From NCBI GenBank assembly GCA_951406725.2, contig OX597827.1, positions 7,254,001-7,318,000 on the forward strand: 64,000 nt of DNA, given 5' to 3'. Origin of the DNA: Octopus vulgaris. Its lineage: Eukaryota. The first letter of the stretch is position 1. Every line of letters begins with the position of its first letter. Positions 8,790-59,449 of this stretch are shown here, piece by piece. A program made the position numbers and the translations under genes. The notes beneath the pieces were generated by a model, which had not been told where the DNA came from, did not search any database, and saw only the letters and a program-made list of their open reading frames with translations.

Positions 8790-8999
8790 GTATAATTGCA
8801 GCATGGAAGATGTTTATAAGCCATTTAAGAACACACAAAAACCCCATTAGATTCACTTCAACATTTAAATTTAATTTGTGTCAAAATATTTTTATCACTT
8901 TGAAACCATGACCTGTCCACTGACAAAACTTCGTGATGCAATATGATGTTTAAATGTTGAAGTGAATCTAATGGTTTTTTGTGTGATCTTAAATGGCTT
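8790..8999 (-). mobile_element. Short Penelope-like element with ~52-bp inverted repeat and decayed G3-C8 hammerhead-like motif
   Basis: 8818-8869 is the near reverse complement of 8949-8999; homologous to 43194-43345; core on minus reads GTGGACA with GAAA changed to AAAA. Confidence 0.6.
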
Positions 9000-10469
9000 T
9001 GTGTTCAAATACCACTGCCGCCTGTTTAGATGGTAGACTTAATCTGTTGCCTGGTTTAATTTTACAACTTAGCATCTTGTCATTTTTAGTGGAGTCCACT
9101 CTCTTGTAAGCACTGAGGTCAGGTCTTCAGTTTGAGGATGCTTTCCTCCTTTCTTCACACGAATCTTAGAAGTCTTGCAAATGGCCATAGGCATTATCCT
9201 CCCCAACTGACTTAAAGATATTAAAAAAAACAACAACATCGCTTAACAACTTTCTTTTTCTATTTTAAGACAGTATAGGTGTATTTTGAGGTTTTGGCTG
9301 TTATTTCTAGAATGCTGAGCAGCTGCAAAGAGACACCCCTCATCAAAATAGCTTGGTGAATTGTTGCATGTAGAATTAAGTGTTCTGACCAGGAACACAA
9401 TGAAGTATTATTCAAACCAGATATAAAATCACCAACTATGAACTAATAGTTCAATATATTTTTCACTCTGCTACTTCACCTCTGTATTTGTGTAGACTAA
9501 CCTCCCAGTATTGATTATTGGGTTCTTTATAATTTGGAAAGAATTTTTAATTAGCGATATGCTGTATTCTTATAGAATATCATGGTAACATTGATTATAT
9601 TCTATTATTCTACATTATATGATGGTATATTATGTTATATTCTATTATATTTTGTTATATTATACAATATCGTATTAATAAATGGATCTAATAGTGAAGT
9701 GCTAATTTACAGGAGAACTGAGTCAGTGAACTAGATTTCATATTTAGTTCATACCACTTGACTTTGTAAATAAGGCCTGAAGATCACATTTTCTCAATTT
9801 TCTTCATTCTTGAAAATAATTCAGTTTTGGTAAAAAGCTATTATATTTTATTAAAAAAAAAATAATGACAAAAATTCAAAACTTTGCATTATGGATAACA
9901 ATACCATTTCAAAATAATTTTTCCATGTTAGCAGAAATGGAATATCTTTTTGTTTTGGAAAATTAGAAACTATGGTGATAATTTGGAAAAATAGAAAATA
10001 TGGTGATAATTTTGCTTTCTGTATGGTTAAGAAGTCTGCTTCGTAACCATGTGGCTAATGTGCCCATTGCATGGCTCCTTAGCCAGTAGAGTTTATAGAG
10101 TAGATATCACTTTCAGGAAGGGCAAAGAAAGGGATAAGGGATTAGGGGGCAAAATTATGAGAGATTGAAAATTTTGCTTAAAAATATAAAAATCTTTCAG
10201 TGTTGTAATTTCTGTTTTAGGGAAATGTAGAGATACTAATAAAATATTAAGGGGGTAAAAAAATTGCCCCTTTCTGCACCATGAAGCAGTAATAGCAATT
10301 CCAAATTCCACCCTTTGACCAAGTGTCTCCTACTAGAGGTTTAGGCAGAGTGAAGTTGATAGACAAAAGCTGTTTTATACATACATACATACATACATAC
10401 ATACATACATACATACATACATACATACATACATGTATATATATTCATATATGTATATATGTATGTACA

Positions 10470-10920
10470 TACTTTTATTCTTTAATTATTTTATTTGTTT
10501 CAGTCATTTGACTGCAGCCATGCTGGAGCACTGCCTTTAGCCAAACAAACCGACCCCCAAGACGTATTTTTTGTAAGCCCATTATTTATTCTATTGGTCT
10601 GTTTTGCTGAACTGCTAAGTTACGGGTATGTAAACATACCAACATCAGTTGTTAAGTGATGGTAGGGGGACAGAGACATACAAACATACATACACACACA
10701 CACACACACACACACACACACACACATATATATATATATATATATATATATAAATACGATGGGCTTCTTTCAGTTTCTGTGAACCAAATCCACTCACAAG
10801 ACTTTGGTTTGCCCAAGGGTATAGTAGAAGGCACACTTGCCCAAGGTGCCATGCAGTGGGACTGAACTCAGAACCATATGGCTGAGAAGCAAACCTCTTA
10901 CCACACAGCCATGCCTGCAT
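10470..10920 (-). mobile_element. SINE family B
   Basis: Reverse copy with internal (CA)n/(TA)n. Confidence 0.85.
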
Positions 10921-11754
10921 CTATATATATGCATGCACACACACTCACACACACACACACATATATATATGTATATGTATAAGTATGTATGTATATATAT
11001 ATGTGTTTATACATATATATATATATATATTCATATATGTATATATATATGTGTGTGTGTGTGTATGCATGAGTATCTATGTATGCGTGCATGCTTGTAT
11101 GTAGACAAATGTGCGTATATATGTGTGTGCATGTGTGTGTTTGTACGTATCAGTTTCTCTATGTATCTTTACATTTGACATCCCATGCCATGCAGAATGG
11201 TTTCTCTGTTTATGTTCTGTAACTTAAGATAAATATAAATCTCTAAGATAAACACTGGACTAAAACCTTTCGAGACAGTGCTGCAGCATGTCCACATTCA
11301 AACGACTGAAATAAGAAAAAAGACTATTTACTTCATGGAGACTGAAAGCATTTTTCATATCTACTAATTGATAAGTATTTTATTCCTGGATGTTTACATA
11401 GAACTGGAACTTTAAGCGAGAATATTTATTTTATGATATCTAATATTTTATAAGTGTTTAATTTTTAATTCCTGGATGTGTATTTAGTTCTGGAACGGAT
11501 TCATATTCAGCCTTTATTTCTAATCTAAAGTCATAGTAACACTGTAATCCAATTCCAGTTCTGCTCAGTGTTTATCAGCTATTTCATTTATTATCCGATT
11601 AATTTATATACTTAAATTAAGTAATAAAAATTTCCTAGTTTAAATTCTTGTCAGAGTTAGTCTTATATTCTGAGCTGAAATCCTATCAAGTGCAACTTAA
11701 GGTCACTGGTGCTGGTAAAATTAAGAAGTGATAGGCACTGATGTCACGTATGTA

Positions 11755-12370
11755 GGTGCAGGCGTGGCTGTGTGGTAAGAAGTTTGCTTTCCAACCACAT
11801 TGAACTGGGTTCAGTCCCACTGCATGGCACTTTGGGCAGGTGACATCTACTAGAGTCTCAGGCTGGCCAAAGCCTTTTGAGTGGATTTGGTGGACAGAAA
11901 CTGAAAGAAGCCTATTGTATATACATACATGCATGCATACATACATACATACATACATACATACATACATACATACATACATACATACATACATACATAC
12001 GTCCATACATACATACATGCATGCCTACATACATACATACATGCATGCCTACATACATGCATACATAATACATATATATATATATAGAGAGAGAGATATA
12101 TATATATATATATGTTGTGTATGTGTATATATATATGTGTGTGTGTTTGTGTATGTGTGTGTGTGTGTATGTGTACCTTTGCATTTGTGTTTGTCCCCCA
12201 CCACCATTTGACAACCAGTGTTACTGTGTTTACGTCCCTGTAATTTAATGGTTTGGTAAAAGAGGCTGATAGAATAAATACCAGGCTTTAAAAAGTAATT
12301 AATACTGAGGTTGATTAATTAGTTTGTGACTAATCCTCAAAGCAGTGCCCCAGCATGGCCACAGTCTAAT
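11755..12370 (+). mobile_element. SINE family B with expanded internal microsatellite
   Basis: Head at 11755, (TACA)n/(TA)n/(TG)n middle, 3' part to ccagcatggccacagtc. Confidence 0.85.
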
Positions 12371-12494
12371 GAGCACATATTGTATCATACAATATCATAT
12401 TGATTTCAAATTTTGGCACAAAGCCAGCAATTTCAGGGGATGGGTATAAATCAACTACAGCAACCCCAGTCTTCAACTGATACTTATTTTACGC

Positions 12495-57817: not shown

Positions 57818-58135
57818 ATATAATCACCCCACATTACTGTATTGTTAAATCAGTATAGTTTTTTTGGTGCATCTAAGTTAGGTACCATATTCAAGTAAAT
57901 TCATTTAAATTAACTTGAATCTTTATTGCTTTTATATATATATATATATATATATATATATATATATATATATATCTTTATATTTTGTGAAATAGAAAGA
58001 TGAATAATCTTGTTGCAGATTAATCAAAAGTTTAACCGATACCATGGTAGCAAAAATCACAGCAGAAGACAGCACGGTTGGAGGTACAACCATATGGTGT
58101 TGCAACCGTGCGTTGGTGCGGATAATTGAATTTTA

Positions 58136-58196
58136 ATATTATTAGTGAATTGAAGAAATGGAGTTCAACTCCATTTCTTCAATTCACTAATAATAT
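58136..58196. repeat. Perfect palindrome, 30-bp arms, 1-nt loop
   Basis: atattattagtgaattgaagaaatggagtt-c-aactccatttcttcaattcactaataatat. Confidence 0.9.
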
Positions 58197-58199
58197 ATA

Positions 58200-59235
58200 T
58201 CTTTATATATATAAACTGAGAATGTGTGTCTGTCTGTCTGTGTGTTTCCCTAAAACTTGAGAACTACACAACCAATTTCATTCAAATTTTACACATGCCT
58301 TACTTAGGATCCATGTAGTTTCATGGGTAAAAAAAATGTTCAACTTCTTGCCTAGAGTGAGCCCATAGCAATATCATATCTTCTCCACTATTTCAGTATT
58401 ACATGTTAAAAGTGAAACAAAAACATTTCTCTATTTTATGTATGTCAGATACTTTCACTTTAACAATAAAAATAATAATAACAATTGAATTATATGTAGT
58501 AAGTAATAATTAAAATCAAACCAAAGTATAATATAATTGTAACATAACAAAAGTAAAAATAGCAATTGGTATAAAATTGCATCAATGACTTGAACTTGAA
58601 TAAGTGGTTTCACATGAATGGGAATAAATTAAAAATAAAATTAGCGTGCAGAAATGGAATAGTCCAGATGGATAATAAAAAATTAAATTAAAGAAAAGAC
58701 TATTGTCTTTAAAGTATACAATGTAGAGAAAAAAGAAGATTTGAACACATGTAGGAAAGCACCTTCGAAAAGTGTCTTGGTGCGACTATGAAAGATATCT
58801 AATCAGAGGCGGTAAATTCGCCACAATAGAAGCAAGGTTCGAGTCAACGGAGCGTGCAAGGGAGTACTTGACTTGAACTTGCAAAGTGGAAATATTTTAT
58901 TTTTACCTTTATATCTGGGACGTAGGACGTCTCGGAAAAAAATTTAAAATGCCCCACCCTCAAGTAGAGGTAGGCTGGATTGTAGCCACACTTGTATACA
59001 AGAGGGAGGACAAGATACAATTGATCGAAATTACAAGAGACGGGCTAACAATTCCAGTCTGTTATATATTTTGAGTATTGTTATCACTAGCGATATCAAG
59101 ATATAACTTTGAAGTTTTTTGTATTTTATGTGTAGATGTATATATATAGATGTACATGTAATATGTACACATATATATACACATATATACATGCACTAGC
59201 ACTATTACCCGGCAACGATGGGTCTTTAATGCTAG
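58200..59235 (+). mobile_element. Non-autonomous Helitron
   Basis: Starts A|TCTTTATATATATAAA, (GTCT)n block, 3' hairpin acccggcaacgatgggt, ends CTAG|T, no TSD. Confidence 0.8.
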
Positions 59236-59250
59236 TATATATATATATAT

Positions 59251-59449
59251 AGGGAGAGTTTATGAAAAAAACAAAAGACGAAGACAGGTGGTGTATAAAA
59301 CAAACAGATGTATTAGTATAACGCTCAGGAATAGAAAAAGTCTTTTATGTTTTGAGCCTACGCTCTTCTACAGAAAGGAACGCAGAAAGAAACAAGGAGA
59401 GAAAAAAGGAAAGAAAAAATGTGTGTAGTGGCTAACGATCTATCATGGC
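59251..59449 (-). mobile_element. Short (TA)n-embedded element with decayed hammerhead-like motif (59342-59377)
   Basis: Minus strand: cttt-CTGTAGA-a-gagc-gtag-gctc-AAAACATA-aaag; related truncated element at 29848-29970 keeps ctcGAAACGTT. Confidence 0.5.

Follow-up and report, generated by a model that had tools for sequence, protein, structure and literature searches.

What are the short elements that lie in and beside TA microsatellites of octopus DNA, and do the minimal hammerhead folds they carry, with three different pairs between core positions 3 and 8, belong to working ribozymes? The question is raised by a 64,000-nt stretch of the 2.8-Gb Octopus vulgaris genome (assembly GCA_951406725.2, contig OX597827.1, positions 7,254,001 to 7,318,000), AT-rich and dense in microsatellites. 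This whole stretch is called the window, and positions are counted from its first letter. A preliminary description of the window had read the elements, here called A to F, as dispersed mini-elements with covariant cores. By sequence comparison they are almost certainly the 3' ends, truncated on the 5' side, of four or more families of Penelope-like elements (PLEs), and the whole is best explained, with a probability of about 0.85, as PLE ends holding minimal hammerhead folds. The element type itself is ordinary and the ribozyme type is also known; what appears to be new is one or two core variants for which no report was found.

Minimal hammerhead folds and the 3-8 pair

The hammerhead motifs of the preliminary description are present, although the coordinates given there mark the start of stem I and not position 3. 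The core N3-UGA-N-N8-A, followed by GAAA and UH and with Watson-Crick pairing between positions 3 and 8, was found in A, B and C. The fold of A (50973-51054, + strand) has a long stem II, the C3-G8 core CUGAAGA at 50979-50985, GAAA at 51037-51040 and a predicted cut after 51048. The G3-C8 fold of C (43208-43258, +), identified by descriptor scan, folding and alignment of copies, consists of stem I at 43208-43214/43252-43258, the core GUGAACA at 43215-43221, an unpaired G at 43222, stem II at 43223-43227/43237-43241, GAAA at 43242-43245 and the palindrome AAUAUU, with a predicted cut after 43251. The hammerhead-like U3-A8 fold of B (52293-52363, +) has an imperfect stem I, the core UUGAUAA at 52312-52318, stem II at 52319-52323/52331-52335 closed by G-U, GAAA at 52336-52339, the palindrome ACAUGU and a predicted cut after 52345. 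An inverted copy of B has its core at 51939 (-). The decayed sister of C noted earlier is element D, with its core at 8920 (-), where A6 has changed to G and G12 to A.

Most copies in the window are damaged. The palindrome of A, broken there, is intact in 13 of the 30 copies compared across the genome, and the core in 23 of the 30; the window copy of C has U11.1, and C11.1 is found in 27/30 copies. Stems I and II of C form the minimum-energy fold (z = -2.4); the folding of D cannot be told from that of its shuffles (z = -0.17). The descriptor scan of the window required stems I and II, of at least 5 and 4 bp, respectively, at the strict setting. A and C were the two matches. Twenty block shuffles gave none at any of the three stricter settings, and at the loosest a mean of 0.4 matches and a maximum of 2. 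Element B was missed by the strict scan because of U-U mismatches in stem I beside the core, and RNAfold prefers a non-hammerhead structure for it, so that the hammerhead is not its minimum-energy structure. A sister family of B, its open reading frame (ORF) 84-92% identical in most matches, forms a clean U3-A8 hammerhead in almost every one of 30 copies; its stem I is paired, and G10.1-C11.1 and A17 are present. That clean fold supports the U3-A8 call at B, while B itself has drifted. Stems I and II together with a palindromic stem III were found in A, C, E and the sister family of B, stem I of B being interrupted. The folds of A, B and C and of their families bear out the earlier reading of minimal type I hammerheads, whose self-cleavage is predicted. 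In searches with Rfam, 150 of the 236 window matches were listed, all of them to microRNAs and driven by microsatellites, with no hammerhead; nor did a hammerhead reach gathering score in five loci.

The proposal that positions 3 and 8 stay complementary was examined in an unselected sample of 94 stretches of 10 kb (940 kb in total, with 14 stretches adjoining the window or each other). The strict sample descriptor left positions 3 and 8 free and asked for G10.1, for stems no shorter than 3 and 4 bp and for a strict palindrome. All 11 matches, from five families, were Watson-Crick at 3-8 (C-G in five, G-C in three and U-A in three), and ten shuffles gave a single match, unpaired at 3-8. When a looser descriptor was applied to the window and the first 74 stretches, 13 of 15 matches were Watson-Crick, or seven of nine families by our own grouping, and on shuffles one of six. 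With a setting that tolerated mismatches the proportion was 5/8. Complementarity thus extends across families in three pair forms, and, with these variant cores found, searches for CUGANGA alone would undercount the motifs, as had been suggested. Two candidates were set aside: U3-A8 in a copy of C (locus L171; loci are numbered with L) that is 85% identical and whose stem I is broken, regarded as decay, and, on the antisense strand of L391, a G3..C8 parse with G9, GAAU and a long loop, regarded as chance. Further hammerhead families with U3-A8 and clean stems were seen at L204, L218, L228, L280 and L283.

The folds resemble the minimal hammerheads that Cervera and De la Pena (2014, PMC4209133) described in pseudo-long terminal repeats of metazoan PLEs in being of type I with a short stem I, an extra base after A9, G10.1-C11.1 and a palindromic stem III, in including U3-A8, and in occurring mostly as solo truncated copies and in opposite-strand pairs. 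The alignment in that paper also has U17 and G-U at 10.1-11.1. Its 56 representatives show C3-G8, U3-A8 and U3-G8, with neither G3-C8 nor U6 in the legible rows, and it lists no octopus. U3-A8, the base after A9, the palindromic stem III and the opposite-strand pairs were thus already published, the earlier reading being overstated on these points.

Core variants and the question of cleavage

The origin of G3-C8 was sought among relatives of family C. Six of 13 related metagenome loci have a sense-strand fold behind the ORF, with C3-G8 in L381, L382, L384, L385 and L392 and U3-A8 in L380; no such fold was found in the other seven, most of which are short or lack the repeat. A related family of the same genome, G, has C3-G8. 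In a tree of 27 reverse transcriptase (RT) pieces, C and its older copy L193 fall in a starred clade with G and the fold-bearing relatives; only L392, on a long branch, falls outside it. Five relatives in the RT clade of C have C3-G8 and one U3-A8, all in the same place. Since the relatives of C mostly carry C3-G8, G3-C8 likely arose from it by a compensated double swap. G3 and C8 are both kept in 75 of 81 aligned copies of C; these are the best-scoring copies and are dead, so the count shows ancestry and not selection. Family G itself (L394-L399, P0122) has many matches of 97-100% identity and open frames of up to 1312 codons, and its fold has C9 and a non-palindromic stem III; C9 is also present in the metagenome locus L380.

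In the Anolis PAc hammerhead G3-C8 is a laboratory rescue mutant (PMC11167929), whereas here it is the natural state of a family that numbers thousands of copies. The anole PLE hammerhead needs protein, and the C3G/G8C change partly restores its cleavage (PMC11167929). In the literature seen, whose figures and supplements could hold either, no natural G3-C8 or U6 core was found, only the engineered G3-C8. Cleavage by the G3-C8 fold under some condition is somewhat favoured.

Element E has C3-G8 but U6 (core starting at 59373, -), and its window copy also lacks G12. Exact matches to a 27-nt motif of E in the whole genome numbered 15,730 with U6 and 180 with A6, compared to none for the control. 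At position 7, the one free to vary, each of the four bases occurs among the first 100 matches of E that were listed. When position 6 was also left free in the sample, 8 of 19 matches had U or C there, all of them E-like; a family resembling E has A6. Natural U3-A8 and A6C variants are reported in PMC3088659 as rare single examples, the position-6 variant retaining low activity, whereas U6 is the usual state of family E, which has at least 15,730 copies. Cleavage by the U6 fold under some condition is somewhat doubtful. At most tentatively, G3-C8, U6 and C9 may be seen as a series of PLE hammerheads that breaks the consensus, yet was carried through large expansions.

The role of the PLE hammerhead is debated, as it is near universal in canonical PLEs, cuts poorly in vitro and is dispensable in one in vitro insertion system; its minimal forms have been proposed to act as dimers. 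In the mechanism we favour, the end repeat with its minimal hammerhead would likely cut the element RNA either as a dimer or with an element protein. Two repeat copies in a tandem transcript would pair through the palindrome, freeing the element RNA, which RT and endonuclease would copy into (TA)n from its 3' end, an early stop or a strand switch leaving stubs. The 3-8 pair would be kept by selection on master elements, not on dead copies. If the variants cut, probably with an element protein, G3-C8 and U6 would be unreported natural active cores, and tens of thousands of ribozymes in a single animal genome would escape standard descriptors. Should they prove inactive, the series would reveal what PLEs require of the fold apart from catalysis. 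With its families both young and old, which bear C3-G8, U3-A8, G3-C8, U6 and C9 and one of which has an open RT-endonuclease frame, this one genome offers a ready test set for whether selection acts on cleavage or on the fold alone.

The alternative that survives best accepts the PLE ends but takes the folds of several families as relics, or as structures for RT binding or priming, in which the catalytic bases (A6, A9) drift and the stems and GAAA are retained. The excess of U6 over A6 in E, C9 in the young family G, the weak stem I of the young family B and insertion in vitro without cleavage all fit it, as does the spread of Naiads without canonical hammerheads in the published account. The 3-8 pair, important in the active fold, nevertheless stays complementary in three forms, the variability in E includes the free position 7, and the A6C precedent shows that a change at position 6 need not abolish activity. 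Several results weigh against cleaving ribozymes or against covariation as stated here. Matches cluster in few families, those with G3-C8 all come from one, A3-U8 did not occur in the 940-kb sample, and copies within a family show decay and not covariation. The fork joining C and G as sisters (88/94) is not starred. By themselves the palindromes of C and E (-0.2 and -1.7 kcal/mol) could not hold a dimer together, and the youngest family, B, has the weakest fold. U6 in E, C9 in G and L380, GAAU in L382 and G4 in L384 amount to more core drift than an essential enzyme would show. Insertion in vitro proceeded without need of cleavage, and no reads ended at the cut site (PMC11167929). Because of the weak palindromes, the poor fold in the youngest family and the drift at positions 6 and 9, the relic or binding explanation, though unlikely, keeps an appreciable share of the probability.

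The elements as ends of Penelope-like elements

All the elements in the window are dispersed repeats by genome search, first-look candidates numbering 3044 for C, 133 for A, 1047 for B and 1970 for E, of which 40 were scored for each. The window had been said to hold no RT or GIY-YIG frame, and profile searches indeed gave no match there. The Penelope context proposed for the elements was confirmed elsewhere in the genome, where the suggested search for linkage tied A, B, C and E to RT and GIY-YIG frames or their remnants.

Element B (52001-52418, +) corresponds to the final 418 bp of a pseudo-long terminal repeat (pseudo-LTR), 498 bp in length, that belongs to a young family. All 40 scored genome matches are 100% identical over 176 bp, and the copies have a common 3' end, many reaching far upstream. 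Locus L092 contains a 5.2-kb copy with 498-bp direct repeats, to both of which B is 99.5% identical, and an upstream frame overlapping a 781-aa frame. The latter matches RVT_1 (E = 1e-6, just under the cut-off) and GIY-YIG (E = 3e-6) in Pfam; relatives of L092 were 856 among 8000 scored candidates. Beside B lies an inverted 5' copy of its end (51794-52008, -), with a 38-nt tail and the second fold, recognised as a 99% inverted repeat and by 98.6% identity to L092 7128-7343. Four contig-only runs, which we guess to be RNA, span most of B; no start, end or intron is visible, and they are neutral either way. The 3' untranslated region of B in L092 (2940-3300, -) has ATTGG and TGACGTC motifs about six times, which we take to resemble CCAAT boxes and cyclic AMP response element (CRE) sites; perhaps they serve as a promoter for the next tandem unit.

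Element C (43074-43341, +) is a 5'-truncated 3' end, 88% identical to that of the copy at L156, where C leads on the same strand to a broken YVDD RT and GIY-YIG, plus an inverted 5' copy. The (TACA)n before 43170 is part of the element, this microsatellite being common to other copies. Just before the fold, at 43170-43195, lie a branch-point-like CTAAC and TTTCTCAG, with a pyrimidine tract ending in CAG; these motifs may mark a 3' splice site like that of Drosophila Penelope. In some PLE families a spliceosomal intron overlaps the pseudo-LTR. Element D (8790-9010, -) is a decayed copy of the same family, 83.7% identical to C, and consists of a 3' end (8794-8940, -) and an inverted 5' piece (8950-8999). 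Element E (59236-59449, -), which falls within the range given in the preliminary description, is the 3' end of a very abundant family. RT and GIY-YIG remnants lie upstream of it on the same strand in six of 30 loci (L331, L334, L337, L341, L344 and L347), as detected with a PLE profile. Element F (57709-57983, +) is a truncated and inverted fragment with only the 3' half of a C3-G8 fold (GAAA at 57790); the complete fold was found in the flank of L092.

Element A (50922-51369, +; 81.5% identical to L036) is the 3' end of an old family. It was traced upstream through overlapping alignments of 64-85% identity to L193, L194 and L195, where the remnants show the motifs RDD, DKT and NHP. A 154-aa frame there has a GIY-YIG cluster (score 0.95; family on 40% of members) among its Atlas look-alikes. 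One long copy (L193/L194) joins the fold to RT remnants and the GIY-YIG-like frame. PLE profiles built from relatives of B barely detect A. Pfam tells against these assignments, with scores below cut-off for the C pieces and no RT or GIY-YIG match in the A or E pieces.

The 5' ends of the copies are ragged or inverted and the 3' ends fixed. Inverted 5' copies occur in L091, L095, L096 and L156 as well as in the window. A 38-nt tail is present in 7/30 copies of B; in 14/30 copies of C the extension is longer, about 57 nt. At least five TA units adjoin the B end in 28/30 copies, compared to a background of 1.2%; E ends near TATATA in 23/30, and C also has internal microsatellites. The TA flanks are insertion targets. 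Pseudo-LTRs, 5' truncation, often with an inverted copy, an optional tail of 30-40 bp and a bias for (TA)n are published traits of endonuclease-positive (EN+) PLEs, and (TA)n targeting is already in Craig et al. 2021 (PMC8557442). Nested PLEs, namely a C copy within an A copy (L193) and a B element adjoining F and E fragments (L092), are consistent with shared (TA)n targets.

A CX2-5CxxC linker can be read in B, C and E, and this linker and the (TA)n bias suggest Neptune or Nematis (PMC8557442); the tree, in which B and C lie in distant clades, holds unnamed relatives only. The A remnants probably fit the Hydra clade of the same paper, judging by motifs read by eye: DKT and GWK in L195 (the clade has DKT and RWK, a CxCX5C linker and no CCHH), a GIY-YIG-like C-terminal frame in L194, (TA)n flanks and a canonical core. 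A differs in being heavily decayed, its linker too much so to be scored.

The preliminary description favoured non-autonomous mini-elements or retrozyme-like families, and separate families of this kind, like short interspersed nuclear elements (SINEs), could borrow PLE enzymes. In favour of this, the copies are mostly short, no full open frame was seen in copies of A, C or E, and F and several sampled families were not linked to an ORF. Homologous copies, however, extend kilobases further upstream, and the ragged 5' ends are continuous into RT and GIY-YIG frames, which argues for truncated copies of coding PLEs and makes separate non-autonomous families improbable, and for A, B, C and E largely refuted. 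The non-LTR retrozymes of animals likewise have type I hammerheads with a palindromic stem III and a proposed PLE origin (PMC7229834; bioRxiv 10.64898/2026.07.22.740005), but they lack an ORF and consist of units of a few hundred bases repeated in tandem, each holding a hammerhead; here the truncated PLE ends are dispersed, and the window has no tandem arrays of hammerhead units. Miniature inverted-repeat transposable elements (MITEs), or chance hairpins mimicking hammerheads in AT-rich DNA, would account for the 176-bp inverted repeats of B, the TA flanks, the lack of an Rfam match and the modest folding z-scores, but are scarcely credible, as the inverted arm is optional and of variable length, the linked proteins are RT and GIY-YIG and not transposase, shuffles give almost no descriptor matches, and L092 and L156 rule out both readings, that of MITEs at the B repeats included.

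Other observations in the window

A 103-aa frame at 12549-12860 (-), with no Pfam match, presumably resembles the C-terminal restriction-like endonuclease of long interspersed nuclear elements (LINEs) of the R4/NeSL type. Remnants at 39322-39741 (+), 38655-38957 (-), 6642-7103 (+) and 34582-34971 (-) are taken, by eye, to be mariner transposases and a LINE end of the CR1/L2 type. Tandem arrays lie at 17858-18735 (25-bp unit), 60809-61329 (105 bp), 33233-33492 (76 bp) and 42317-42516 (25 bp).

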